Shown: piece by piece, positions 4,036 to 26,619 of the stretch
Position numbering within the stretch: position 1 is the first letter of the stretch
How the letters are laid out: every line of letters starts with the position of its first letter
Assembly (NCBI GenBank): GCA_964452635.1
Contig: CAYVMP010000006.1
Coordinates: forward strand, 1-37,599
DNA: 37,599 nucleotides
Direction: 5' to 3'
Source: an uncultured Candidatus Saccharibacteria bacterium
GTDB taxonomy: Bacteria; Patescibacteriota; Minisyncoccia; Phycocordibacterales; DATDWN01
Notes under the pieces: model-generated
Seen by the model: only the letters and a program-made list of their open reading frames with translations
Database searches by the model: none
Told to the model about the DNA's origin: nothing
Program-made: the position numbers and the translations under genes

Positions 4036-6177
4036 ATGTCTAAAGAATCTGAAAAAAAAGTGAAAAAGGACACGCCCACCAACGCTAAAGCTAAGGTGGA
4101 CACGTACGGAGCGGATGCAATCCAGATTTTGGAGGGTCTTGAACCCGTACGAAAGCGTCCTGGAATGTACATTGGTACGACTGGTCCAGACGGTCTTCAT
4201 CACCTTATTTGGGAAATTTTCGATAACTCACGTGACGAAGCCATGGGTGGTCATGCAAATGACATTGAGGTTACACTTTTGCCCAACAACCGTATCCGTG
4301 TTACGGACAATGGTCGTGGTATTCCAGTAGATATTCATAAACAGACCAAGGTGTCTGCGCTTGAAACCATTATGACAACACTCCACGCAGGAGGAAAGTT
4401 TGGTGGTGAAGACGGTGGCTACAAAGTGTCTGGAGGTCTGCACGGCGTGGGAGCATCGGTAGTTAACGCACTCTCTATTTATTGTAAAGTAACTGTTCAT
4501 AAGGACGGAGGTGTGTACATGCAGGAGTACTCTCAAGGCAAGAAAAAAGCACTTGTAAAGAAGATTGGAAGTACTAAAGAACAGGGAACGATTGTTCTCT
4601 TTGAACCTGATACAGCAATCTTTCAATCAGTTGAGTTTGATTTTGACCGAGTGGTCAACCATTTGCGCCAGCAGGCGTATCTCGTGAAGGGCTTGCGGAT
4701 TACAGTCAACGATGCACGTGAATATGCAGGAAAAATAAAAGAGGACGATACATTTAAAATATCTGAGCTTGGGTTGGAAATCCCATCAATGTCATTCTAT
4801 TTCGAAGGAGGTTTACTCTCTCTCGTCAAATTCTACAATAGTACTCAAAAACCGATTCATAAAAATATTTTCTATATTGAGAAAAATACAAACGAGTATG
4901 AGTCTGTTGAGGTATCCCTTCAGTACGTTGACGATATCTCATGTCGAATACTTCCATTTGCAAACAATATTTATAACCCCGAAGGAGGTACGCATGTAAC
5001 GGGATTTAAAACCGCACTGACACGTATTTTGAATGCGTACGCTCGTAAAAATAATTTGATAAAAGAAAGTGAAGATAACTTCACTGGTGACGATGTTCTC
5101 GAGGGTTTGACCGCAGTAATCTCCGTGAAGCTACGAGAGATTCAGTTCGAAGGTCAGACTAAAGCAAAACTCGGTACTGTCGAGGCACAGAGTTCAGTCA
5201 ACACAGTATTCTCTGAAGGATTCACATACTTCCTCGAGGAGAACCCAGATGATGCTCGATCAATCATTTCTAAAGTAGTTCTCGCACTCAAAGCTCGAAA
5301 GGCTGCAAAGGCTGCAAAGGATTCCGTGCTCCGTAAGGGTGTGCTTGAAGGTATGACACTCCCTGGTAAACTTGCCGACTGTCAGTCAAAGAGTTCTGAG
5401 GATTCTGAGCTCTTCATTGTGGAGGGAGATTCTGCAGGTGGTACTGCAAAGACTGGTCGTGATCGACGCACACAGGCGATACTTCCACTTCGAGGAAAGA
5501 TTCTTAACATTGAACGTGCACGTCTCGACCGAATGCTTGAGTCAGAACAGATCAAAAATCTCGTGCTTGCACTTGGAACTGCTATTGGTGATACGTTTGA
5601 TATTGCAAAACTTCGATATCACAAAGTGATTATTGCTACCGATGCAGACGTGGACGGTGCGCATATTCGAACATTGATTCTCACACTTTTTTATAGATTT
5701 TTCCGACCGCTTATTGATGGGGGATTCATATATATTGCTCAACCACCACTCTATAAAATAAAGAAAGGCAAGGAGGTCCACTACGCATATTCAGATGAGG
5801 AGAAGGCGGGTATTGTCGGAAAAGCTGAAGTCGCTGAGATTGGAGAAATCAGCGAGGAAGACCTTGCCCTGCGTAGCTCAAGTGAAGCGCAGAGCGAAGC
5901 AGGGGAAGATGCTGACACTCCTGCTTCGCCAAAGGCTTCGCAGGATAAAGCTAAAGCTTTGAAGATCTCTATTCAACGATACAAAGGTCTCGGAGAGATG
6001 AATGCTGAGGAACTCTGGGAGACAACGATGGACCCTGCTCGTCGAATACTCAAACAAGTTACTGTTGAGGATGGTGTGTCTGCTGACAAGGTATTCGATA
6101 TTCTCATGGGAAGTGACGTTCCATCTCGAAAGTCGTTCATTCAATCAAACGCAACTAAGGCAAATCTTGATATATAA
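4036..6177 (+). CDS. gyrB: DNA gyrase subunit B, with a ~35-40 aa low-complexity insertion in the C-terminal linker that contains a repeated palindromic element
   Basis: The ATPase (GHKL), transducer and Toprim domains are recognisable, including EGDSAGG, PLRGKILN and IQRYKGLGEMN motifs. The linker between YAYSDEE and IQRYKGLGEM is ~60 aa, versus ~20 aa in typical GyrB. Confidence 0.95.
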   Translation: MSKESEKKVKKDTPTNAKAKVDTYGADAIQILEGLEPVRKRPGMYIGTTGPDGLHHLIWEIFDNSRDEAMGGHANDIEVTLLPNNRIRVTDNGRGIPVDIHKQTKVSALETIMTTLHAGGKFGGEDGGYKVSGGLHGVGASVVNALSIYCKVTVHKDGGVYMQEYSQGKKKALVKKIGSTKEQGTIVLFEPDTAIFQSVEFDFDRVVNHLRQQAYLVKGLRITVNDAREYAGKIKEDDTFKISELGLEIPSMSFYFEGGLLSLVKFYNSTQKPIHKNIFYIEKNTNEYESVEVSLQYVDDISCRILPFANNIYNPEGGTHVTGFKTALTRILNAYARKNNLIKESEDNFTGDDVLEGLTAVISVKLREIQFEGQTKAKLGTVEAQSSVNTVFSEGFTYFLEENPDDARSIISKVVLALKARKAAKAAKDSVLRKGVLEGMTLPGKLADCQSKSSEDSELFIVEGDSAGGTAKTGRDRRTQAILPLRGKILNIERARLDRMLESEQIKNLVLALGTAIGDTFDIAKLRYHKVIIATDADVDGAHIRTLILTLFYRFFRPLIDGGFIYIAQPPLYKIKKGKEVHYAYSDEEKAGIVGKAEVAEIGEISEEDLALRSSSEAQSEAGEDADTPASPKASQDKAKALKISIQRYKGLGEMNAEELWETTMDPARRILKQVTVEDGVSADKVFDILMGSDVPSRKSFIQSNATKANLDI
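5865..5904. repeat. 40-nt palindrome-ended element, tgccctgcgtagctcaagtgaagcgcagagcgaagcaggg, inserted in-frame in gyrB and encoding ALRSSSEAQSEAG. An identical copy sits at 17574-17613 in smc. Further GCGAAGC/GCTTCGC palindromes follow in gyrB up to ~5942
   Basis: The 40 nt are identical at both loci. The ends are inverted repeats (ccctgc / gcaggg), and the 10-bp inverted repeat gcgaagcagg / cctgcttcgc lies at 5893-5926. Confidence 0.8.
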
Positions 6178-11200: not shown

Positions 11201-11507
11201 TGAGGTTTTTGTATCCAGTGTCGTTGACTGCAAGGAGCACAAGACGATACCGCTCTTTGTCGATTTGCTGTTTGTCGTGTCGGCTTCTGTATGCAACGTA
11301 CGCATCAATACCGATGATTGGTTTAATTTCTTTTTTCTTGCATGCTTGGTAGAACTCGATTGCTCCGTATAGGTTACAGTTGTCTGTCAGTGCAATAGCA
11401 GACATGTCATTTTTCTTTGCTTCTGCGACGAGGTCGGGAATTTTAGGTAGTGCGTTAAGCAGGGAGTAGTGGGAGTGGGTATGAAGATGGATAAATTTGG
11501 ATGACAT
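8280..11507 (-). CDS. dnaE: DNA polymerase III alpha subunit
   Basis: The 1075-aa protein has an N-terminal PHP domain (HLHTHSHYSLLNA), a polymerase core and a C-terminal OB domain. Confidence 0.95.
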   Translation of the reverse strand: MSSKFIHLHTHSHYSLLNALPKIPDLVAEAKKNDMSAIALTDNCNLYGAIEFYQACKKKEIKPIIGIDAYVAYRSRHDKQQIDKERYRLVLLAVNDTGYKNLIKLVTLAHMEGFYYKPRIDRELLETYHEGLIAISPSFTGDIVQSVKLSHTEQALERVAWYKKVFGVDANGEPNFYIEITHHPEIKGHEETMQKLITFARETQTPIVASHDVYYLEPEDRVARQTLMSIQSQTDEKIEVTDEDFSFITEKQAEKYFKNIPDALENTVKIADRCNLEISIGKWSLPNYIVPSGRSYDDELRFITENGIATRGLERTPELLERMEYELSIIKDKGYAPYFLVVSDLLNFAHENGILTTIRGSVAGSLVTYLSHITNVNPLEYNLPFERFLNPSRPSAPDIDMDYADNRRDEVIEYARQKYGIDKVAQIGTFGTMAARGAVRDVTRALGFPYGVGDTIAKLIPMGAQGFPMTIERALKEVPELKQMYTTEPDTKTIIDMAQKIEGSARHISVHAAGVVISPTPLTDFTPLQYDTKGDQKVITQYDMHSVGEDGVGLLKFDFLGIRNLAILADAVKIVEKIEHTHIDIENVPVDDKKTFEMLARGETIGLFQLNGDGMTRWLKELRPTTIHDINVMVALYRPGPMDNINEYVARKHGKKPITYMHPKMKNFLDRTFGVLVYQDDLLMTAIEVAGYTWGEVDKFRKAVGKKIREEMAKQHIKFVEGCQTHGGMTAEKAEQIWDLFEPFQGYGFNKAHAASYGKVAYQTAYMKANFPAIYMSAVLTAESGDVDMISEIVSECKRMGIPVLPPDVNESFEGFTVVKGDEKDSIRFGLTTIKNFGEGIGTFIISERKKNGRFVSLSDFLRRITDKNLNKKSLESLIKAGALDSFALSTPHIPASEYRATLLHNLETLLMFNKEERVRETAQDSLFSLMSGGDVVTEITLVPAPTGTSANNLMWEKELLGLYISGHPLDSFKEKLDKREMTIRKIKETAKEKQPIVVGGIIEEIKPVVTKKGDKMIFMKIADMTDSIEAVAFPKIFEEFQDILVPEGCVVIKGTFSTRNDGKSILVDKVKVLE

Positions 11508-11517
11508 GGTGGTTGGA

Positions 11518-11710
11518 TTTTAAAAAATAATTTCTTTCTCACCACTTCATTTTGAGAGACCCCGTCTCGGCGTGCTCGCCGATCGGTTGCCTCGAAAATC
11601 TAAGAAAACAATGTCCTCGACCGTGTACCATTCACGGTCTCGTCCTTGTTTTCTAAATTTTATGCGAAGTCTCTCAAAATGAAGTGATTCAACGAAATTA
11701 TTTTTTAAAA
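11518..11710. repeat. Structured intergenic element, copy A (~190 nt). Arms of ~35 bp form an imperfect inverted repeat (11526-11560 versus 11669-11702) enclosing a ~105-nt core with two local hairpins. Related to the copy at 24755-24925 and to a miniature copy at 1115-1170
   Basis: The left arm, aataatttctttctcaccacttcattttgagagac, pairs with the right arm, gtctctcaaaatgaagtgattcaacgaaattatt, with an internal 8x7 loop. The core hairpins are cggcg-tgct-cgccg and ccgtg-taccatt-cacgg. Confidence 0.6.
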
Positions 11711-15496: not shown

Positions 15497-15543
15497 TGTT
15501 CCCAAAATGTATAATGAAGTTTGTTAAAAATAAATTTGTTGAA

Positions 15544-15636
15544 CCAATATGTTTTTGGCATATGCCGCAACGCGTGAAGACGTGAGGTTAAGGAAAAATC
15601 GTAGCAACGATTTATTCCGGTGCCAAAAACATATTG
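15544..15636 (+). promoter_or_regulatory. Perfect 17-bp inverted repeat, ccaatatgtttttggca / tgccaaaaacatattgg, enclosing 58 nt in the smc leader
   Basis: Read directly from the sequence. It ends 34 nt upstream of the smc ATG. Confidence 0.5.
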
Positions 15637-15669
15637 GTGAGAAAAAATTTATTTTACACACTGAAAACT

Positions 15670-17961
15670 ATGTATCTCAAATCAATCGAACTTTCTGGAT
15701 TCAAATCATTCGCAAAGAAAAGCGAGTTGCTTTTCAACTCGTCAATTTCTGCTATCGTTGGACCAAACGGATCGGGAAAGTCGAACATTGCGGAGGCATT
15801 CCGGTTTGTACTCGGTGAACAGTCCATCAAATCACTCCGTGGGAAAAAGGGTGAGGACCTCATATTCAACGGTGCAGGGGATTTGCCACGATCAAACCGT
15901 GCATCAGTGAAAGTCGTGTTCGACAATAGTAGTAAATTTCTACCAGTTGATTTTCAAGAGGTGACTATCGAGCGAGTCGTCCATCGAGACTCAGTCAATG
16001 AATACCTCATAAATGGCTCACAGGTTCGTCTCAAGGATGTGATTGAACTTCTCGCTGCTGCACACATCGGAGCATCTGGACACCATATCATTTCGCAGGG
16101 AGAGGCTGATCGTATTTTAAATGCAAGTGTCAAAGAACGTAAATCAATGATTGAAGATGCTCTCGGTCTCAAGATGTATCAATATAAAAAACAAGAAAGC
16201 GAACGTAAACTCGAAAAGACCCGAGAAAATATTGTACAGGTAGAATCCCTCCGGCGAGAGATTCTTCCGCATATTAAATTTCTCAAGAAACAGGTTGAGA
16301 AAGTCGAGAAGGGAATTGAGCTGAAAGGTGAATTACGAGAACGTGCGATTGAGTATTGTAATCGTGAACAGGAATACATCACACGAACTACAGCCCACTT
16401 ACATGAGACGCGTTTACCACTTGAGTCGACACTTCGTGCGCTCGAAGAAGAGTTGCAGGAAGCTAAATCGATTCTTAATGCCCGCGAACACAAGGATCAA
16501 AAATCCGAAGACCTCATTCAACTTGAAAAAAGTTTACATGCAATTCGAGATGAGAAAGACAACCTCTATCGTGAGTTTGGACGCATCGATGGTGAAATGA
16601 CATCGCTCGTGCGTATGGTAAAAAAACAGGAGGAGGTTGCGCAATCATACGAACATAAAACTGTACCACTTGTATCTGTCGAATCATTGTCACAAAATAT
16701 TGAGTCAAAAGTCCACACAGTACGGGGGTGTGTGACGGATGGCGACATCACTCTTGCTCTACAGACGTGTGACGAGATTGTACGACTTGTTACTGAATTT
16801 GTTGATGACAATAAAGATAAAGTGGATATGTCACTCCTCTCTGATGCTCAAAGAGATATTGAACATTTGAAACAGTCCAAAAATGATATTGAAAGCAGAC
16901 TTCAAGATATAAAGCAAAAGGAAATACGCGTGAGTGAACAGTATACTGTGCTCAAGGAAAACATTGAAAGGGAAAAAGATTCTAATCGTGATGCAGAAAA
17001 GGCAGTATTTCGTATTATGGCAGAACAGCAGGAAGTACGATCAAAACTGCACTCCCTCGAGAGTGATGAGAATCTTTTGAAAGTAGTCTCTGAAGATTTC
17101 AAGCGAGAAATCACAGAACTTGCGGTACTACTTGGGCGTGATGTATTGCAGTTTTCGGCGTATACGTTTGACTATACCGAACCTCGTACTGCTCAGGAAG
17201 AGAGGAGAAGAATGGTTGAGAAAATCAAGATTCGTTTGGAAGAAATGGGTGCGTCGGGTAGTGATGATGTGCTAAAGGAATACACAGAGGCTACTGAGCG
17301 AGACACGTTTCTCACGAAGGAGCTTTCTGATTTGGAGGCCTCAGCCTTGTCACTGACTGGACTCATTGCGGATTTGGATACGAGACTTTCAACAGAGTTT
17401 AAAACAGGAGTAGAGAAAATCAATCGACAATTTAAGGAATACTTTGCTCTCATGTTTGGTGGAGGGGAGGCGTCTCTTTCGGTTATTGTGGAACAAAAAC
17501 GCAGGAAAAGTGATACTGGTGCAGATGATTTGTTTGGGGGTGATTCTCATGATTTGTTAGACGATGGAGGGCATGCCCTGCGTAGCTCAAGTGAAGCGCA
17601 GAGCGAAGCAGGGATTGATATCGAGGTGAGTCTTCCAAAGAAAAAGGTGAAGGGACTCATGATGCTCTCAGGTGGTGAGAGGGCACTGACATCCATCGCA
17701 CTCCTCTTTGCTATTTCTCAGGTTAATCCTCCACCGTTTATTATTCTCGATGAGACTGACGCAGCACTCGATGAAGCCAATTCAAAGAAATATGCGGACA
17801 TGATTGAAAACTTATCAAAATACTCTCAACTCATTGTGATTACACACAATAGAGAGACCATGTCCCGCGCAGGAATCCTCTACGGAGTAACGATGGGTAT
17901 GGGTGGGGGATCGAAGTTGCTGTCCGTTGCCTTTGACGAAGCTGTTTCGGTTGCAAAATAG
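15670..17961 (+). CDS. smc: SMC-family chromosome segregation ATPase, short form (~764 aa). An in-frame insertion before the LSGGE signature carries the same 40-nt element found in gyrB
   Basis: Walker A GPNGSGKSN, a long coiled coil, the LSGGERALTSIALLFAI signature and the Walker B motif ILDETDAALD are all present. The start is chosen at MYLKSIELSGFKSF. Confidence 0.85.
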   Translation: MYLKSIELSGFKSFAKKSELLFNSSISAIVGPNGSGKSNIAEAFRFVLGEQSIKSLRGKKGEDLIFNGAGDLPRSNRASVKVVFDNSSKFLPVDFQEVTIERVVHRDSVNEYLINGSQVRLKDVIELLAAAHIGASGHHIISQGEADRILNASVKERKSMIEDALGLKMYQYKKQESERKLEKTRENIVQVESLRREILPHIKFLKKQVEKVEKGIELKGELRERAIEYCNREQEYITRTTAHLHETRLPLESTLRALEEELQEAKSILNAREHKDQKSEDLIQLEKSLHAIRDEKDNLYREFGRIDGEMTSLVRMVKKQEEVAQSYEHKTVPLVSVESLSQNIESKVHTVRGCVTDGDITLALQTCDEIVRLVTEFVDDNKDKVDMSLLSDAQRDIEHLKQSKNDIESRLQDIKQKEIRVSEQYTVLKENIEREKDSNRDAEKAVFRIMAEQQEVRSKLHSLESDENLLKVVSEDFKREITELAVLLGRDVLQFSAYTFDYTEPRTAQEERRRMVEKIKIRLEEMGASGSDDVLKEYTEATERDTFLTKELSDLEASALSLTGLIADLDTRLSTEFKTGVEKINRQFKEYFALMFGGGEASLSVIVEQKRRKSDTGADDLFGGDSHDLLDDGGHALRSSSEAQSEAGIDIEVSLPKKKVKGLMMLSGGERALTSIALLFAISQVNPPPFIILDETDAALDEANSKKYADMIENLSKYSQLIVITHNRETMSRAGILYGVTMGMGGGSKLLSVAFDEAVSVAK
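17574..17613. repeat. Second copy of the 40-nt palindrome-ended in-frame element (identical to 5865-5904). A perfect 10-bp palindrome, gggcatgccc, is created at its 5' junction
   Basis: Exact 40/40 identity with the gyrB copy, translated in the same frame (ALRSSSEAQSEAG). Confidence 0.8.
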
Positions 17962-18014
17962 CTCCTTGATTATTTTGTAAAAAAGTGTAGAAATATGTGT
18001 GGAGGTAAGCGAAA

Positions 18015-18638
18015 ATGTCCAATAAGTTTCTGGGGGTGCCTAAACCCTTTAAACTCCCACTGTTGGAGGAAAGATTGTGTGAACATAAAATCCCTACATT
18101 ATGGGATGATTCGATGTCTATCGGGTTATATATGGTGTACGCCACTGACGATGATGGACAAGAGAATTTGGAGGAGTTTTGTAAAAAACATCCTTCTAAA
18201 AAATACTTGGTTAGCATGAGTGAATTTGTGCTGACCTGTATTCAAGGAGTTCTGTTTGTGCTTTTTTTGGTAATACCCGCGTCTACAATAGGGAAACCCA
18301 GTATTCCTCAGAATGTCGCTTTGTCCATTATCGAGATGATTATATTAGCTGTGTTCATTTTCTCCCCTAGTTACATAAAGAAGTTGCAGTATACTTTGCG
18401 TGGGAGAGGATGGTCGGAATCTAACCCAGCACTGTTTGCCCATGAGCATCCAATGGATGTTATCAAGCAAATCTGCGGGTGTTCTACAGATGACTGTACT
18501 CACTCACCATTTAATTTCTTGGTGTCGCACCACCCAAGAAATCCTACTCGATTCCTGTCTGTTAAGGGACCAGATACTGGTCCTGCGAGAGTGTACTTCC
18601 TCGCTTCGTGGGAAAAACCATCAGAAAAATCAGAGTAG
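18015..18638 (+). CDS. Small membrane protein, paralog 1 (207 aa), with two predicted TM helices and a Cys/His-rich C-terminal region (ICGC...C.H...HHPRNPTRFLSV...YFLASWEKPSEKSE)
   Basis: RBS GGAGGT; promoter TTGATT-N16-TAGAAA; its own terminator at 18648-18676. Confidence 0.7.
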   Translation: MSNKFLGVPKPFKLPLLEERLCEHKIPTLWDDSMSIGLYMVYATDDDGQENLEEFCKKHPSKKYLVSMSEFVLTCIQGVLFVLFLVIPASTIGKPSIPQNVALSIIEMIILAVFIFSPSYIKKLQYTLRGRGWSESNPALFAHEHPMDVIKQICGCSTDDCTHSPFNFLVSHHPRNPTRFLSVKGPDTGPARVYFLASWEKPSEKSE

Positions 18639-18647
18639 AGTAGATAT

Positions 18648-18676
18648 CCTCCGGTACACGCCGGGGGATTTGTTTT
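18648..18676 (+). terminator. Intrinsic terminator of paralog 1 (cctccgg tacacg ccggggg + ATTTGTTTT)
   Basis: Stem-loop plus T-run; an identical copy lies at 19415-19446. Confidence 0.6.
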
Positions 18677-18766
18677 ATATCAATCCGTAGCGAGAATTTC
18701 ATCAAAAATCTTTCTACCTTGATTATTTTGTAAAAAAGTGTAGAAATATGGGTGGAGGTACGTGAA

Positions 18767-19405
18767 ATGTCAGATAAGTTTACGGGTACGTTTAAGCCCT
18801 TCGAGTACCCAGCGTTGGAGTTGGAACACCGTCTCCATAGTCGTAGCGTAGTGGTATCTGAAGAGCCATCTCAAGTGGTTCTGTATATGGTGTACGGTAA
18901 GGATTATGATGCACTTGCAAACCGAGAGGAGTTTTGTGAAAAACATCCTTTCCAGAAGTATTTTGTTGGAATGAGTGAGTTCGCGTATGCTTCCTTTATC
19001 CTTCTTGTTGGCTTATTGTTTCTGTTTACAACTGTCATAGCCTTTACTGGAGAACGAGGATTCACTACCCAGAACATACTAAAAAGCATTTTTATGATAG
19101 TTGTGATTTATCTCTGTATTTTTTCCCCCAGATACATAGAAAGACTAAACCATTCTTTGGAGGGTAGGGAATGGACGACTTCCCCTCCATCACATTTTAC
19201 CAATGAGAATTCGATGGATAGCATGAAAATAATCTGTGGTTGTCTCGATGCGGTTTCAAAATGTGCTCACCCAGGGTTTATTTTTAAGGTGTGGCACCAC
19301 CCACGCAATCCTACTCGGTTTCTGTCGGTTGAAAGTGTTCGTTCTGAAGGCAGAAGAAGATATTTCCTCGCCTCGTGGGAAAAACCATCAGAAAAATCAG
19401 AGTAG
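18767..19405 (+). CDS. Small membrane protein, paralog 2 (212 aa) of the same family. The start is the ATG after GGAGGT, not the upstream GTG
   Basis: It shares the N-terminal MS.KF.G..KPF, LYMVY, EEFC.KHP, FSP.YI, ICGC and HHPRNPTRFLSV...YFLASWEKPSEKSE motifs with paralog 1. Confidence 0.7.
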   Translation: MSDKFTGTFKPFEYPALELEHRLHSRSVVVSEEPSQVVLYMVYGKDYDALANREEFCEKHPFQKYFVGMSEFAYASFILLVGLLFLFTTVIAFTGERGFTTQNILKSIFMIVVIYLCIFSPRYIERLNHSLEGREWTTSPPSHFTNENSMDSMKIICGCLDAVSKCAHPGFIFKVWHHPRNPTRFLSVESVRSEGRRRYFLASWEKPSEKSE

Positions 19406-19414
19406 AGTAGATAT

Positions 19415-19446
19415 CCTCCGGTACACGCCGGGGGATTTGTTTTTTT
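19415..19446 (+). terminator. Intrinsic terminator of paralog 2, convergent with the rnr 3' end
   Basis: Identical hairpin plus T-run. Confidence 0.6.
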
Positions 19447-21497: not shown

Positions 21498-21526
21498 TTG
21501 ACAAAAAATTGAAAGGGTGCTACTAT
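21498..21526 (+). promoter_or_regulatory. Strong sigma70-type promoter: −35 TTGACA (21498-21503), 17-nt spacer, −10 TACTAT (21521-21526)
   Basis: Consensus −35 with ideal spacing; it drives the GC-rich noncoding segment downstream. Confidence 0.6.
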
Positions 21527-21534
21527 ATACCCAT

Positions 21535-21740
21535 AATGATCTTTCAAAATTTTTCGTTCGGCGTACGAACTACGCCACGCACAGGCTTACCCGGTCACCT
21601 GACCGGGGCCCACTAGGGGCTTAAACTAGCAACTTGTCTCGCGCAAGCTCGAGATCGCCAACATGGCCCGAATCGCCATGCTGGCAGCGGATCCCGAGTC
21701 TTGTAGAGACAAAGAGGGCAGGAGAAATCCTGCCCTTTTC
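21535..21740 (+). ncRNA. Unidentified ~200-nt GC-rich structured ncRNA with its own promoter and intrinsic terminator (gggcagg agaaat cctgccc TTTT, 21714-21740). The ORFs called here on both strands are probably spurious
   Basis: Multiple stable hairpins are visible: cccggtc-acct-gaccggg at 21590-21607, catggc-ccgaatc-gccatg at 21662-21680, and ggcgta/tacgcc. It is 57% GC in a 42% GC genome, with no credible coding potential. Confidence 0.5.
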
Positions 21741-21785
21741 CATATATAAATTTACAATTTTTTCCTTTTACAAAAAGGGTATCTG

Positions 21786-21860: not shown

Positions 21861-22051
21861 AGTTTTCAAAATTCGTCGAGTGCACTTACTGTTCTGGCAC
21901 ATTGCGCAGTCAATTAGAAAACAACTGTGGGCGAGTGATGGGAACACGAGATCCGCATCTTGTTTTCTTGATTGGCGAGCGTGAGGAAAATTTCTAGCAA
22001 GAAATTATTCCGGTGACAGAACAGTAAGTGTCGAGACAAATTTTGAAAACT
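21861..22051 (+). promoter_or_regulatory. Long-range inverted repeat in the uvrA 5' leader. The arms agttttcaaaatt...cacttactgttctg (21861-21896) and cagaacagtaagtg...aattttgaaaact (22017-22051) enclose ~120 nt and end 12 nt before the uvrA ATG
   Basis: The 13-bp and 14-bp perfectly complementary segments are separated by a 9-nt mismatch loop in each arm. Confidence 0.5.
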
Positions 22052-22062
22052 ATCCAATTTTT

Positions 22063-24693
22063 ATGAAACCCAACCCAAAACAAAACGAACTCATTATCGT
22101 CAAAGGAGCACGAACACACAACCTTAAAAACATTACGGTTGAAATGCCTCGCAATAAAATGATTGTCTTTACTGGTCTCTCGGGTTCCGGCAAATCATCA
22201 CTTGCATTCGATACGATATTTGCAGAAGGTCAGCGTCGATACGTGGAGTCACTTTCGTCCTATGCGCGACAATTTCTCCGACAGATGCAAAAGCCGGATG
22301 TAGATGAAATCGTCGGACTCTCACCAGCTATCTCTATTGATCAGAAATCTCGTTCGAACAACCCACGTTCGACTGTGGCGACGATTACAGAAATCTACGA
22401 CTACCTCCGTATTCTCTACGCACGTATCGGTCATCCACACTGTCTCGTGTGTGGGAGAGAAATCACTAAACTTTCAAACGAAGAAATTAAAAACTTTATT
22501 CTCGGGAAAATCAGTGAGCAGACCAAGCTCATGAAGAAATCAGAAAAGAAAATCCCATTTCCAATGTATGTTGAACTGTTTGCTCCTGTTGTCCGTGGTC
22601 GCAAGGGTGAGTACTATCAACTCCTCTATGATTTACTCGGCAAGGGATACACACATGTTCTCATTGATGGTGAGCGAAAATCTCTTCGAGAGAGAGTTGA
22701 ACTTTCAAAGACGAAACGACACACAATAGATGTGCTCGTGGACAGTCTCTCGCTTTCTGATTTTACAACTGATATGAAAAGTGCTGAGGAGCGTTTGGCG
22801 GAAAGTCTCGAAAAAGCACTCAATGAGTCAGATGGTCAGGTGAAAATACTATTTCGAGATATTGGACGTGAATCTGAAAAAGAATACAAACCAGAAGAAT
22901 TTTTCATGTCTTCAAAACTTTCATGTCCGCACGATGGGTACTCATATCCAGAGGTTGAGCCACGGTTATTTTCATTTAACTCTCCATACGGAGCGTGTTC
23001 AGAGTGTAATGGTTTAGGAACACGGCATTTCTTTGGCAATGAAGTCTGTCCTAAATGTAAGGGTGCACGACTTCGTGAGGAGGCCCTCCATGTGCTCATC
23101 GGGGGGAAGAATATCGTTGATCTTACTGCATCATCTATCAAGGATGCACATACATTTTTCGATACACTCAAACTAACAGACCGTGAGAAAAATATTTCCA
23201 AAGTTGTCATGCGAGAAATTGAATCTCGACTTCTCTTTATGATAAATGTCGGTATTGAGTACCTCTCACTCTCGCGACGTGCACACACGCTCTCTGGTGG
23301 TGAGGCACAGCGTATTCGACTTGCAAGCCAGCTCGGATCAGGACTGGTTGGTGCACTCTATGTACTCGATGAACCGACGATTGGACTGCACTCACGAGAC
23401 AATGATCGTCTCATTCAGACACTCATTGATTTGAAAAATCTTGGTAACACTATTATCGTTGTCGAACACGATGAGGATACTATTTTTGCATCTGACTATA
23501 TTGTTGATATTGGTCCGGGTGCTGGTCGGCACGGTGGGGATGTTGTCGTGTCTGGATACCTCGATGAACTTTTGACTGCAAAGAAAAACACATCGGGTTC
23601 GCTGACACTCGACTATTTGCGAGGGGATAAAATAGTAGAACTTCCTGAGAAAAGACGTGATACACCAAAAGGTGAGTTGCAGATTCGTGGTGGAAATATT
23701 TTTAATATTAAAAATATGAACGTTGATATTCCACTTGGACGACTCATTGTGGTGACGGGAGTGTCCGGTTCAGGCAAATCATCCTTTGTGTATGAGATTT
23801 TAAATAAAAATTTGCAGGCTCGGTTTGAGCGCAAGTATCGGAGTGCAGAAATATACAACTGCAAAAGCTTTACTGGTACGGAATATCTTGGTCGCTCTAT
23901 TTTGATTGATCAGAGTCCTATTGGACGTACTCCACGAAGTAACCCTGCGACATACACTGGTAGTTGGTCGTTCATACGGGATCTCTTTGCAGAGACATCA
24001 GAAGCACGTGCTCGCGGATGGAAGGCAAATAGATTTTCTTTCAATGTGAAGGGGGGACGATGCGAGACGTGTCAAGGTAACGGCATGATTGAGGTGGAAA
24101 TGCATTTCCTTCCGACAGTATATGTACCGTGTGATGTGTGTAAGGGCAAGCGGTTTATGAAAGAGACACTCGAAGTACAGTACAAAAAGAAAAATATCTA
24201 CGATATTTTGAAAATGACTGTTGAGGAGGCACTTACATTTTTCAATGATATTCCTACAATCTACGACAGACTCAAAACACTTGATGAGGTTGGGCTTGGC
24301 TACCTCGAACTCGGACAGTCTGCAACGACGCTCTCCGGTGGTGAGGCACAGCGTGTAAAGATTTCATCCGAGTTGTACCGACCACATTTACAGAAAACAA
24401 TGTATCTGCTCGACGAACCGACAATCGGTTTGCACTACGAAGATGTGAAGAAACTAATTGAGATTGTTCAGAAATTAGTAGACAAGGGAAACACAGTGCT
24501 CATTATTGAACACAACATGGATGTCATTAAATCTGCTGACTATCTACTCGACATTGGTCCAGAAGGTGGTGAGGGCGGGGGACAGCTTGTAGCAAAGGGA
24601 ACTCCGGAGGAGGTTGCAAATAGTGAGAAGAGTCACACAGGGAAGTATTTGAAGAAGGCGTTGAAGCAGTATAGGGCGTATAGGAAATCCTAG
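22063..24693 (+). CDS. uvrA: Excinuclease ABC subunit A
   Basis: Two ABC ATPase modules are present ([18 protein letters not shown], twice LSGGEAQR), with zinc-finger Cys clusters. Confidence 0.95.
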
Positions 24694-24754
24694 ATTCTGA
24701 TACGGTACATTTCCGAGCACGTATAAGGGAACACTTAGCTCTTCCTCGGTAGTA

Positions 24755-24925
24755 AAAAAATTACAGTAATTTCTTTCTCACCATCTATTTTCTCCAGACC
24801 GCGTCCTCGCCCGGGAGCGAGTCGCTTGCCTCGTCATTCATAAGAAAATGTAAAGTGGAATACCACTAACATTTTCTAAAATGACTGCGAAGTCTTGCAA
24901 AAATAGATGGTTCGACGAAATTATA
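24755..24925. repeat. Structured intergenic element, copy B. The left arm is taatttctttctcaccatctattttctccagac (24767-24799) and the right arm is gtcttgcaaaaatagatggttcgacgaaatta (24892-24923). It has the same architecture as copy A, and the conserved motifs are shared
   Basis: It shares AATTTCTTTCTCACCA, TTGCCTCG, TTTTCTAAA and TTCRACGAAATTA with copy A. The stem positions differ from copy A but remain complementary within copy B. Confidence 0.6.
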
Positions 24926-24943
24926 AAATTACTTGAGTTTGTA

Positions 24944-24976
24944 AAATAAAAAGGTGCCGGTTTCTCGGACACCTTT
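24944..24976 (-). terminator. Intrinsic terminator for the − strand gene 24998-25264 (caaaggtg tccgagaaaccgg cacctt + TTTTT)
   Basis: Hairpin plus T-run on the − strand. Confidence 0.6.
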
Positions 24977-24997
24977 GGAATTCCTAATCTAATATTC

Positions 24998-25264
24998 TTA
25001 AGCAAGTAGTTCTAAAAATTTGTTAACATCAGATATTTTTTGAAATAAAAGTTTTGGTGATGATGGGATATCTGTTCTGTCAATAGTATCCAACCATTTG
25101 TTTAATAGTATTACTGCTTCCGGATGAATTTCTTGGGTTGATCTCTGTGCGCCATCTGTCCGGCTATGGTGATTTTTGGACATATAGATTTTTTCTCCAT
25201 CCCAAGCATTCAAGACTGCGCCAGTGTACGCAGCCATTTCCTCAACCTTTTCTTTGTGTGTCAT
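24998..25264 (-). CDS. Hypothetical protein (88 aa)
   Basis: A good RBS (GGAAGGAG) lies 8 nt upstream of the ATG, and a terminator follows downstream. Confidence 0.5.
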   Translation of the reverse strand: MTHKEKVEEMAAYTGAVLNAWDGEKIYMSKNHHSRTDGAQRSTQEIHPEAVILLNKWLDTIDRTDIPSSPKLLFQKISDVNKFLELLA

Positions 25265-25299
25265 TGTTTTTCTCCTTCCAATTTGATATCATATTTGGG

Positions 25300-26619
25300 A
25301 TGAAACGTCAAGATGTTCTACAACTCATTAAGAAATTTCCAGATGCACCGGGGGTGTATTTCTTTAAACGTGGGGAGGGCTCGGGTAGTGAGATTTTGTA
25401 TATTGGAAAGGCTACATCTCTCCGTGATCGGGTGCGCAGTTATTTCTCCAAAGACATTGGTGAGGTTCGTGGTCCACTCATTACCAAAATGCTCAGTGAG
25501 TTTGGTAGAATCGAGTATACAGAGACAGACTCCGTGCTCGAAGCTCTTATTCTCGAAGCTCATCTCATCAAAAAACACCAACCTCCTGCAAATGTGATGG
25601 AGAAGGATGACAAAAGTTTCAACTTCGTTGTCATTACGAAGGAGGAATTTCCGCGGGTGCTCATTGTGCGTGGACGTGAACTCCTAGTCTCACACCTCTC
25701 ACAGAAACAGGAGGATAAACTTGGCTACGAGATTGCGTATTCATTTGGACCATTTCCAAATGGTATACAACTCAAGGAAGCACTCAAAATAGTGCGAAAG
25801 GTTTTTCCATATCGGGATGAAAAGTGTGTTCCTGCAAGAGAGCAGAAGATAAAGAAAGATCAAAAACCAAAAGCCTGTTTCAATCGTCAGATTGGACTCT
25901 GTCCGGGTGTGTGCACAGGCGAAATATCTGCACAGGAGTACGCACAGCAAATCAAAAATATCGTACTCTTTTTTGAGGGGAATAAAAAACAACTCGTGAG
26001 AGATTTGGAAAAAGAGATGAAGCGTTTTGCGAGTGATCGTCAGTTTGAACGCGCAGGTGAAATTAAACGACAGATATTTGCACTTGGGCACATACAGGAT
26101 GTGTCGCTTATCAAGGAAAATAAAAATCATCTCGCTGGTCGAGGTATTTCGGGCAGGGTAATGCGTATTGAGAGCTATGACATCGCTCACATGTCCGGGC
26201 AGAATGTGGTCGGAGTGATGACTGTAGTTGAGGATGGTGAGGTCAAAAGGAGTGACTACCGAAAATTCAAAATCAAAGATAACCCGGGGGTCAACGATAC
26301 ACGGGCACTTCGAGAAGTGCTCACACGACGGCTCGGGCATACTGAATGGCCACTGCCGACACTCATTGTCGTTGATGGAAGTACGGCACAGCGTAATGCA
26401 GTGAATAAAGTACTGCGAGAACATTTTGCCGACACTCCGGATGGAAAGGGGACGAGTATTCCCGTAGTTTCTGTGGTCAAGGATGAGCGACATCGGGCAC
26501 GAGAGATTCAGGGTGATACTGTGTGGCTCGCATATGAGAAAGACATCCTCCTTTCAAATGCAGAGGCGCATCGGTTTGCGATTGGTTTCCATTCTCGTCT
26601 TCGAGGTAAGATAAAGTAG
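25300..26619 (+). CDS. uvrC: Excinuclease ABC subunit C, short form lacking the C-terminal HhH domain. It starts at MKRQDVLQ and is divergent from the upstream − strand gene
   Basis: The GIY-YIG motif (GVYFFKRGEG...LYIGKATSLRDRV), the UvrBC-interaction region and the RNase H-like endonuclease domain (ESYDIAHMSG) are all present. Confidence 0.9.
   Translation: MKRQDVLQLIKKFPDAPGVYFFKRGEGSGSEILYIGKATSLRDRVRSYFSKDIGEVRGPLITKMLSEFGRIEYTETDSVLEALILEAHLIKKHQPPANVMEKDDKSFNFVVITKEEFPRVLIVRGRELLVSHLSQKQEDKLGYEIAYSFGPFPNGIQLKEALKIVRKVFPYRDEKCVPAREQKIKKDQKPKACFNRQIGLCPGVCTGEISAQEYAQQIKNIVLFFEGNKKQLVRDLEKEMKRFASDRQFERAGEIKRQIFALGHIQDVSLIKENKNHLAGRGISGRVMRIESYDIAHMSGQNVVGVMTVVEDGEVKRSDYRKFKIKDNPGVNDTRALREVLTRRLGHTEWPLPTLIVVDGSTAQRNAVNKVLREHFADTPDGKGTSIPVVSVVKDERHRAREIQGDTVWLAYEKDILLSNAEAHRFAIGFHSRLRGKIK

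Follow-up and report, generated by a model that had tools for sequence, protein, structure and literature searches.

A structured element downstream of uvrA belongs to a dispersed, strand-asymmetric family beside housekeeping genes in a subgroup of Parcubacteria

The element that lies downstream of uvrA, here called copy B, is one of four related copies in the window (the whole stretch of 37,599 nucleotides that was analysed). It belongs to a family whose members share a branched fold, covarying helices and a consistent strand asymmetry, are scattered among unrelated genes, and are present, inverted or absent at one and the same site in different relatives. The family is best explained as a non-autonomous, structure-conserving dispersed repeat of the same kind as ERIC, Correia, RUP and REPIN elements, co-transcribed with its neighbours and with copy B as one member, a reading to which we assign a probability of roughly 0.5. 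As far as sampled, the family is confined to a subgroup of Parcubacteria/Paceibacteria (candidate phyla radiation, CPR). It is apparently undescribed so far, as no description of such repeats in these bacteria was found in the literature.

A preliminary description of this DNA had placed a structured element at 24755-24925, and its existence there is confirmed. As RNA, the + strand of 24745-24935 folds with -59.5 kcal/mol, compared with -32.2 +/- 3.7 kcal/mol for dinucleotide shuffles (z = -7.3). Moreover, a covariance model (R1), trained on 14 short-type relatives that did not include copy B, matched it on the - strand at 24764-24926 (60.0 bits, E = 1.5e-10). The limits were refined to those given in Table 1, together with the parts of the element. 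Beyond the main P2 stem, 24796-24800 is paired with 24891-24895 as an extension of P2. In the core, the GA at 24779-24778 lies opposite the GA at 24913-24912 to form a tandem G.A, the UC at 24915-24914 is paired with the GA at 24777-24776, and the AA at 24775-24774 is unpaired and faces the bulged G.

Table 1. Copy B and its parts, its neighbours and the other copies in the window. For elements, the strand is the better-folding one.
Feature	Position	Strand	Details
Copy B, outer stem to outer stem	24767-24923	-	Better-folding ('sense') strand; fold -65.9 kcal/mol
Copy B P1, 5' arm UAAUUUC	24917-24923	-	Pairs with GAAAUUA 24767-24773
Copy B P1, 3' arm GAAAUUA	24767-24773	-	Predicted fold
Copy B conserved core, 5' side	24912-24916	-	Bulged G 24916, UC 24915-24914, GA 24913-24912
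Copy B conserved core, 3' side GA-GA-AA	24774-24779	-	Fold and alignments
Copy B P2, 3' arm	24780-24792	-	Pairs with 24899-24911
Copy B P2, 5' arm	24899-24911	-	Pairs with 24780-24792
Copy B P3, long branched-off hairpin	24833-24885	-	Three stacked helices of 7, 9 and 5 bp
Copy B P4, G+C-rich hairpin closing the three-way junction	24801-24825	-	Predicted fold
uvrA	22063-24693	+	Pfam; homologues
Small ORF, convergent with uvrA	24998-25264	-	No family match
Separate hairpin terminator GGTG-CCG ... CGG-A-CACC	24953-24973	both	Adjoins copy B
Copy A (long type)	11519-11710	-	Directly 5' of dnaE (ATG at 11507); R1 68.8 bits
Copy C (short type)	15525-15656	+	Directly 5' of SMC-like ATPase gene; R1 126.2 bits
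Copy D (long type)	21862-22052	+	Ends ~10 nt before the uvrA start codon; R1 80.9 bits

The uvrA gene is flanked by elements on both sides, with copy D just upstream and copy B 73 nt downstream. Past the uvrA stop codon (24693) the order is copy B and then the hairpin terminator at 24953-24973, whose T-run is strong on the - strand, where it follows the small ORF, and weak on the + strand, where it follows uvrA. The placement of copy B between the uvrA stop and the terminator of the - strand gene, as originally described, stands, but that terminator is a hairpin separate from the element. A scan of 24600-25400 found no promoter-like site near copy B. In the 73-nt stretch that separates copy B from the uvrA stop (24694-24766) there is another imperfect hairpin, CCGAGC...GCTCTTCCTCGG. 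Its - strand carries a CGAGGAAGAGC motif similar to the junction motif of the element, and this hairpin may be a remnant of another copy.

Copies C and D were first revealed by a repeat finder together with folding, and both are inverted relative to A and B. The preliminary description had recognised two full copies in the same orientation. This is correct for A and B (both + by the strand then taken as folded), but the window contains four copies, of which C and D are inverted. A degenerate end-to-end pattern matches A, B and C, for which 100 shuffles of the window gave an expectation of 0.00 matches. The z-scores of the four copies against shuffles range from -7 to -13, with copy A, in the same orientation as B, reaching -12.6. 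The copies are strongly diverged: their P2 stems share almost no sequence, yet each is nearly perfectly paired. None of the elements, at 130-190 nt, contains an ORF.

Copies A, C and D are placed 10-25 nt before the start codons of dnaE, the SMC-like gene and uvrA, respectively. An extended -10 box, TGGTACAAT, lies upstream of copy A at 11726-11718 (-), and a TG-TATAAT -10 box lies upstream of copy C at 15508-15515 (+), with TATAAT at 15510-15515. Both are 7-9 nt upstream of the first P1 base, so that the dnaE and smc mRNAs would start with the element. No Shine-Dalgarno sequence is recognisable between element and ATG for either gene. Other genes of the window, namely gyrB, rnhB and uvrC, have no copy beside them. 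Between the start of RNase R and copy D, at ~21498-21741 (+), a promoter-like TTGACA-17-TACTAT is followed by a G+C-rich stretch of ~200 nt and a clean terminator, GGGCAGGAGAAATCCTGCCCTTTT; the stretch has no Rfam match at E<=5 and could represent a small RNA or a short ORF that has escaped annotation. The window also holds a unit of ~760 bp duplicated in tandem (17964-18690 and 18717-19443), each unit comprising an ORF (207 and 217 aa) without a Pfam match and an 83-nt terminator-bearing tail that is 98% identical between the two.

All copies follow a common plan. An outer A/U-rich stem (P1, 6-18 bp) encloses an asymmetric core loop, followed by a long stem (P2, 13-20 bp) and a three-way junction with the hairpins P3 and P4. 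The sequence of P2 is wholly different among copies, with pairing kept. Two size classes exist, a short type with a simple P3 (copy C) and a long type with an extended P3 (copies A, B and D). On the better-folding strand the core reads 5' ...C-G-UY-GA-[P2] ... [P2']-GA-GA-AA-G... 3'. Here UY is paired with the second GA, the outer GA dinucleotides form the tandem G.A, and the single G faces AA. GUYGA is invariant in both alignments, and the tandem GA/GA beside P2 is found in every copy. Variants of the core loop were found in two related loci (L numbers denote the sequences searched). In L006 (12685-12888) the mini-helix is UU/AA, with both pairs kept and thus compensatory, and in L202 (8263-8443) it is AU/UU with one pair only; the tandem G.A is retained in both.

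The two strands of the element are not equivalent. The preliminary description had taken the + strand of copy B as the folded one, which has to be reversed. Its - strand is the more stable (-62.6 vs -52.1 kcal/mol), and the corresponding strand of the element is likewise the better-folding one in A (-88.4 vs -75.6), C (-51.7 vs -44.3) and D (-74.2 vs -58.8). On this strand the window copies form 4-7 G-U pairs, compared with 1 on the other. The same strand was more stable in 39/39 distinct whole elements, although this count is biased, as the element scanner allowed G-T pairs on one strand only. The test was therefore redone on the interiors alone, which had played no part in picking the elements. 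The same strand was again better in 36/39 (one further interior was tied; means -37.7 vs -33.4 kcal/mol) and held 76 G-U pairs against 45; the copies are related and such counts overstate their independence, but the direction is consistent nonetheless. The conserved unpaired positions are purine-rich on the better-folding strand.

Alignments of the two size classes reveal extensive covariation. In the short type (14 sequences), compensatory change was found in 33/44 pairs and 90.7% of cells were paired, compared with 71.5% after shuffling. The covariation score was 0.588, against 0.221 for shuffles (none of 500 reached 0.588) and 0.06-0.17 for controls in which the partner was slid. The long type (22 sequences including A and B) gave compensatory change in 28/39 pairs, 93.5% of cells paired (76.9% shuffled) and a score of 0.505 (0.202 shuffled, 0/500 reaching 0.505; slid partners 0.08-0.13). 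P1 pairs covary family-wide, as does, in the long-type alignment, the helix homologous to P3 of copy B, while helices 4-5 of that alignment, which correspond to the P4 region of copy B, show both-sided changes throughout. The interior helices played no part in the selection of sequences, and every one of them has changes on both sides. Therefore, the structure is evolutionarily conserved and more than a prediction. Covariation in P1 also fixes the register of the core loop: columns 7/123, 8/122 and 10/120 favour the UY/GA mini-helix with a G/AA loop.

The window is an entire contig of a Parcubacteria/Paceibacteria metagenome-assembled genome (MAG), and its uvrA is 82-88% identical to that of many such MAGs. 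The search for the element covered the uvrA loci of relatives, 80 uvrA loci from species-representative genomes (~20 Patescibacteria, with the remainder from other phyla serving as controls), 113 metagenome contigs chosen by a match to the degenerate end-to-end pattern, and one viral contig. Outside the window, R1 found copies in L004 (3; assembly GCA_964576615.1), L006 (3; JAHFOB01), L011, L200, L202/L203 and L204, with a single weak match in L008 (26.4 bits, E = 0.015), and it confirmed the element in 41 of the 113 metagenome contigs. No R1 match at E<=1 was found in the ~60 control loci (~1.1 Mb from other phyla), and no copy was found by R1 in the ~22-kb loci of the close relatives L001-L003, whose uvrA genes are 86-87% identical. 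A phage origin was considered and rejected, the pattern match in the single viral contig being unconfirmed by R1.

Searches for known RNAs were negative. The window had no match in Rfam 15 at the gathering score, and at E<=5 its elements gave only a spurious match of copy A to a miRNA precursor (26.7 bits, with a cut-off of 56). About 14 elements in five other element-rich loci had no Rfam match at E<=1, and ARAGORN found no tRNA or tmRNA gene in the window. Hammerhead and other small ribozyme cores were rejected on the unfit junction strands and the negative Rfam result. A tRNA-like T-arm was likewise discarded: GGTTCGA occurs on the other strand, but the closing stem is absent.

Copies are dense: the window has 4 in its 37.6 kb, L004 and L006 each have 3 in 22.7 kb, and L097 has 4-5 in 6.8 kb. 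Adjacent inverted pairs, convergent or divergent and 6-10 nt apart, occur in L004 (14218-14513), L112 (5102-5420) and L100 (12707-13089), recalling the clustered arrangements of REP/BIME. The copies nearly fill the spacers in which they lie, typically leaving 0-25 nt to the flanking genes, and occur in 5' UTRs, 3' UTRs and operon spacers. Their neighbours are unrelated housekeeping genes of glycolysis, translation, cell wall and DNA metabolism, including rpe, rpiB, GAPDH, aldolase, transketolase, alaS, mnmA, ribosomal proteins L9 and S1, a release factor, PBP2, relA, parB, recA, recG, polA, dnaB, dnaE, uvrA/B/C, ddl and the nusB-rnc spacer. Relative to these neighbours, one orientation is preferred without being obligatory. 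Of 49 copies, 29 abut the end of a gene on the opposite strand and 11 are followed by the start of a same-strand gene; the spacers between co-directional genes contain 17, of which 12 are antisense and 5 sense. Certain sites are occupied in the same orientation in more than one genome, namely upstream of dnaE (copy A and L148), in the YceG-mnmA spacer (L086 and L107) and in the DEAD-helicase-xseA spacer (L006, L200 and L204).

This distribution agrees with the earlier suggestion of an element that acts independently and is not a gene-specific leader, as copies are dispersed beside many unrelated genes in the window, in MAGs and in the 41 metagenome contigs. The same evidence, with relatives of copy B well beyond uvrA, disposes of the possibility that it is simply a uvrA terminator without conservation elsewhere. 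Since the element lies in either orientation between housekeeping genes, it is not a signal specific to uvrA, nor is it a terminator of the ordinary kind. A cis-regulatory leader or riboswitch was rejected because neither position nor orientation is fixed and the neighbours are functionally diverse. The location of A, C and D before dnaE, smc and uvrA could have indicated a leader common to replication and repair genes. However, the neighbours in metagenomes are housekeeping genes of all kinds, most copies are antisense to the adjacent gene, the copy-free genes of the window noted above belong to the same class, and DNA-metabolism genes make up only 6 of ~40 unbiased neighbours, a weak excess.

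The site after uvrA exists in several states. It is filled by copy B (-) in the window and by a copy on the same strand (-) in L006, whereas in L202/L203 the copy is flipped (+) and its P1 overlaps the stop codon. In L002, L003 and L200 the site is empty and a hairpin terminator lies directly 3' of uvrA. The small convergent ORFs of the window and L006 are not detectably homologous, and hence only the arrangement is common to both. Copy B is closer to copy A than to the L006 copy at its own site, and the post-uvrA copies of L006 and L202 resemble each other; copies are more alike within a genome than at the same site between genomes. Genes for a transposase, integrase or reverse transcriptase are absent from the window, and neither an integrase nor a transposase was seen beside the copies examined. 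Thirty-nine pairs of flanks showed no consistent direct repeat that would mark a target-site duplication, the A/U-rich P1 ends being hard to place. An autonomous partner with the same ends was not found by a scan for unpaired ends, which is a noisy test, nor was a parent element found in the window.

Several known repeat families resemble the element in part. The enterobacterial ERIC/IRU sequences (127-168 bp) are similar in size, are imperfect palindromes that form long hairpins, and occur in many copies in transcribed spacers near genes, in either orientation and patchily among relatives. In Yersinia, ERIC sequences are reported to have orientation-dependent effects on the stability of flanking mRNAs. 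However, there is no sequence similarity and the phylum is another one. Moreover, the present element has a three-way junction, an invariant asymmetric G.A loop and compensatory change in every helix, and strong divergence separates the copies of a single genome. Correia elements, MITEs of Neisseria (100-155 bp), are also dense near genes and have size variants. For Correia elements and the present family alike, co-transcription with the neighbours is expected, and the long double-stranded RNA hairpin is a plausible substrate of RNase III. Correia elements differ in their near-identical terminal inverted repeats, TA duplication and outward promoters. The present element has no visible duplication, its ends differ by the conserved block (GTYGA vs TTTCTC on the same strand), and its stems vary by covariation. 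REP sequences and REPINs share with it extragenic hairpin repeats, clustered inverted pairs and compensatory upkeep, and in both the single-stranded form is probably the one recognised. Membership of the REP/REPIN group was nevertheless rejected on the size and composition of the unit: REPs are G+C-rich palindromes of 20-40 nt with a RAYT, while the element is A+U-rich, branched and 130-190 nt long, and no RAYT gene is known for it or was seen in the sequences covered. A much smaller palindrome is present in coding sequence of the window. An identical 40-nt G+C-rich palindrome lies in frame in gyrB (5864-5904) and in the SMC-like gene (17573-17613) and encodes ALRSSSEAQSEAG at both sites, apparently a second inserting element like the palindromic elements of Rickettsia.

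The attC sites of integrons provide a further parallel, as the folded strand of both is mostly antisense to the upstream ORF and starts from its stop codon, and both combine conserved structure with variable sequence, unpaired extra bases and a variable terminal part. There is, however, no integron integrase or cassette array in the window, no uniform orientation and no pair of complementary R''/R' boxes. The element was accordingly rejected as an attC site: its GTYGAR box lies in an internal loop opposite GAGAAA and does not take part in the inverse-box pairing (R'' RYYYAAC / R' GTTRRRY). The core also has a likeness to a kink-turn, in that a tandem sheared-type G.A / A.G step lies by a helix and is preceded on one strand by three nucleotides, GUY. 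The 3-nt-bulge register yields only 2 conserved pairs, though, and the register fixed by P1 covariation is a 1x2 loop (G / AA) and not a 3-nt bulge with a directly adjoining C-helix, which excludes a standard kink-turn.

The interpretation as a dispersed repeat accounts for the many copies per genome, the filling of short spacers in either orientation, the inverted pairs, and the occurrence of one site as filled, flipped or empty in different relatives. As in MITEs, the element is short and non-coding, its P1/P2 arms are inverted repeats, and multiple dispersed copies differ in presence or absence at orthologous sites. The lack of mobility genes in the window counts against it, as do the failure of the noisy scan to find an autonomous partner, the absence of a visible target-site duplication and the sites that recur in one orientation in several genomes. 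Copies would be transcribed passively together with the neighbouring genes. Lying between the uvrA stop and the hairpin terminator, copy B is most likely the tail of the uvrA mRNA, where it would form the last ~155 nt of the transcript, in the less stable of its two orientations. The large hairpin at this 3' end could block 3' exonucleases or be a substrate of RNase III. Copies A and C would instead be stem-loops at the 5' ends of the dnaE and smc mRNAs. The consistent strand asymmetry is left unexplained, however, if copies are simply transcribed passively in both orientations. The combination of deep divergence, near-perfect pairing and an invariant purine loop points to long-term selection on a single-strand fold, as against decaying selfish DNA. 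The family is unusual in its branched fold, its invariant asymmetric G.A loop and its depth of compensatory change, and because of these three features and the strand asymmetry a functional RNA or a folded single-stranded DNA site keeps some share of the probability.

Of these, a genuine multi-copy class of structured RNA is unlikely, though several observations speak for it. The better-folding strand would be functional, with its G.A loop and junction bound by protein or RNA, and the copies would be a gene family or genome-wide cis modules in UTRs and not selfish DNA. All helices covary, the interior ones included, stability and G-U content are strand-asymmetric, the loop and the purine-rich junction strands are invariant, and the fold is kept in deeply diverged copies; moreover, the -10 boxes of A and C fit a transcription start at the P1 base, and some sites recur in the same orientation across genomes. 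Several features of the copies and their surroundings speak against it. The sequences upstream of the copies are unrelated and thus hold no conserved promoter, nor does the element carry its own terminator. Many copies are wedged, with 0-25 nt to spare, between a gene end and the start of an opposite-strand gene, leaving no room for a promoter; near copy B the scan found no promoter-like site, and its better-folding strand lies behind a strong terminator. Orientation at one site differs between L006 and L202, and both size and interior make-up vary among copies. A single-stranded DNA site for a recombinase or an HUH/Y1 transposase, selected as a DNA hairpin and not as RNA, is regarded as very unlikely. 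In its favour, and as in attC, the strand that folds mostly runs antisense to the ORF upstream of it and begins right after the stop of that ORF (29 vs 11). The outer stem, unpaired spacer with extra bases, inner stem and variable terminal structure loosely follow an attC layout. G.T and tandem G.A mismatches are stable in DNA too, no target-site duplication is visible, as for IS200/IS605, and one site has filled, flipped and empty versions. On the other hand, no integrase or transposase was seen in the window or beside the copies examined, the neighbours are core genes and not cassettes, and the GTTGAAC-like box is unpaired with any RYYYAAC box, unlike that of attC. The four window copies also have no consistent orientation along the contig, and hence no replication polarity.

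The suggestion in the preliminary description that the long hairpin might act as a bidirectional transcription terminator or insulator between convergent genes is not supported by the tests made here and seems very unlikely. Copy B is indeed flanked by convergent genes, a gene end adjoins 29/49 copies, both strands form very stable hairpins, and the P1 arms are A-rich and U-rich as in bidirectional terminators. However, a separate canonical hairpin is kept beside copy B and beside the L006 and L202 copies, and follows uvrA where the site is empty. The element has no G+C-rich stem adjoining a U-tract, its P1 being A/U-rich and the stem broken by internal loops, and the scan of 24600-25400 flagged only a 5-bp inner hairpin at 24854-24867. 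The start of a same-strand gene comes directly after at least 11 copies, A, C and D among them, and 17 copies occupy co-directional spacers; an efficient terminator at such places would block expression. An intrinsic terminator was thus rejected, with no U-tract after the stem and copies that are not restricted to the ends of genes or operons.

Genomes of the candidate phyla radiation are tiny, tightly packed and usually thought to be poor in repeats, with a size of ~1 Mb in Parcubacteria. The sampled density of about one copy per 8-10 kb extrapolates to ~100 copies, or 1-2% of a ~1 Mb genome. Copies lie in transcripts of essential genes (dnaE, uvrA, smc, recA and polA), implying that they are either costly but tolerated or useful. 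The covariance model should help annotators to mark these elements and keep them from annotating false small ORFs or 'riboswitch-like leaders' at these places. Since the fold is kept by compensatory change with one strand favoured, plain selfish DNA is insufficient as an explanation and either of two outcomes would be informative for this uncultivated group: the family would prove to be a novel mobile element that passes through a structured single-stranded intermediate, or else a novel module of structured RNA. In its boldest and rather unlikely form, the latter would be a new, abundant CPR class of branched RNAs of ~150 nt whose tandem G.A docks an RNA-binding protein or nuclease in the transcripts of ~100 housekeeping genes in each genome; in another version, the mobile agent would be the RNA itself. 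If true, modules in UTRs and spacers would constitute a genome-wide network of post-transcriptional control or processing.
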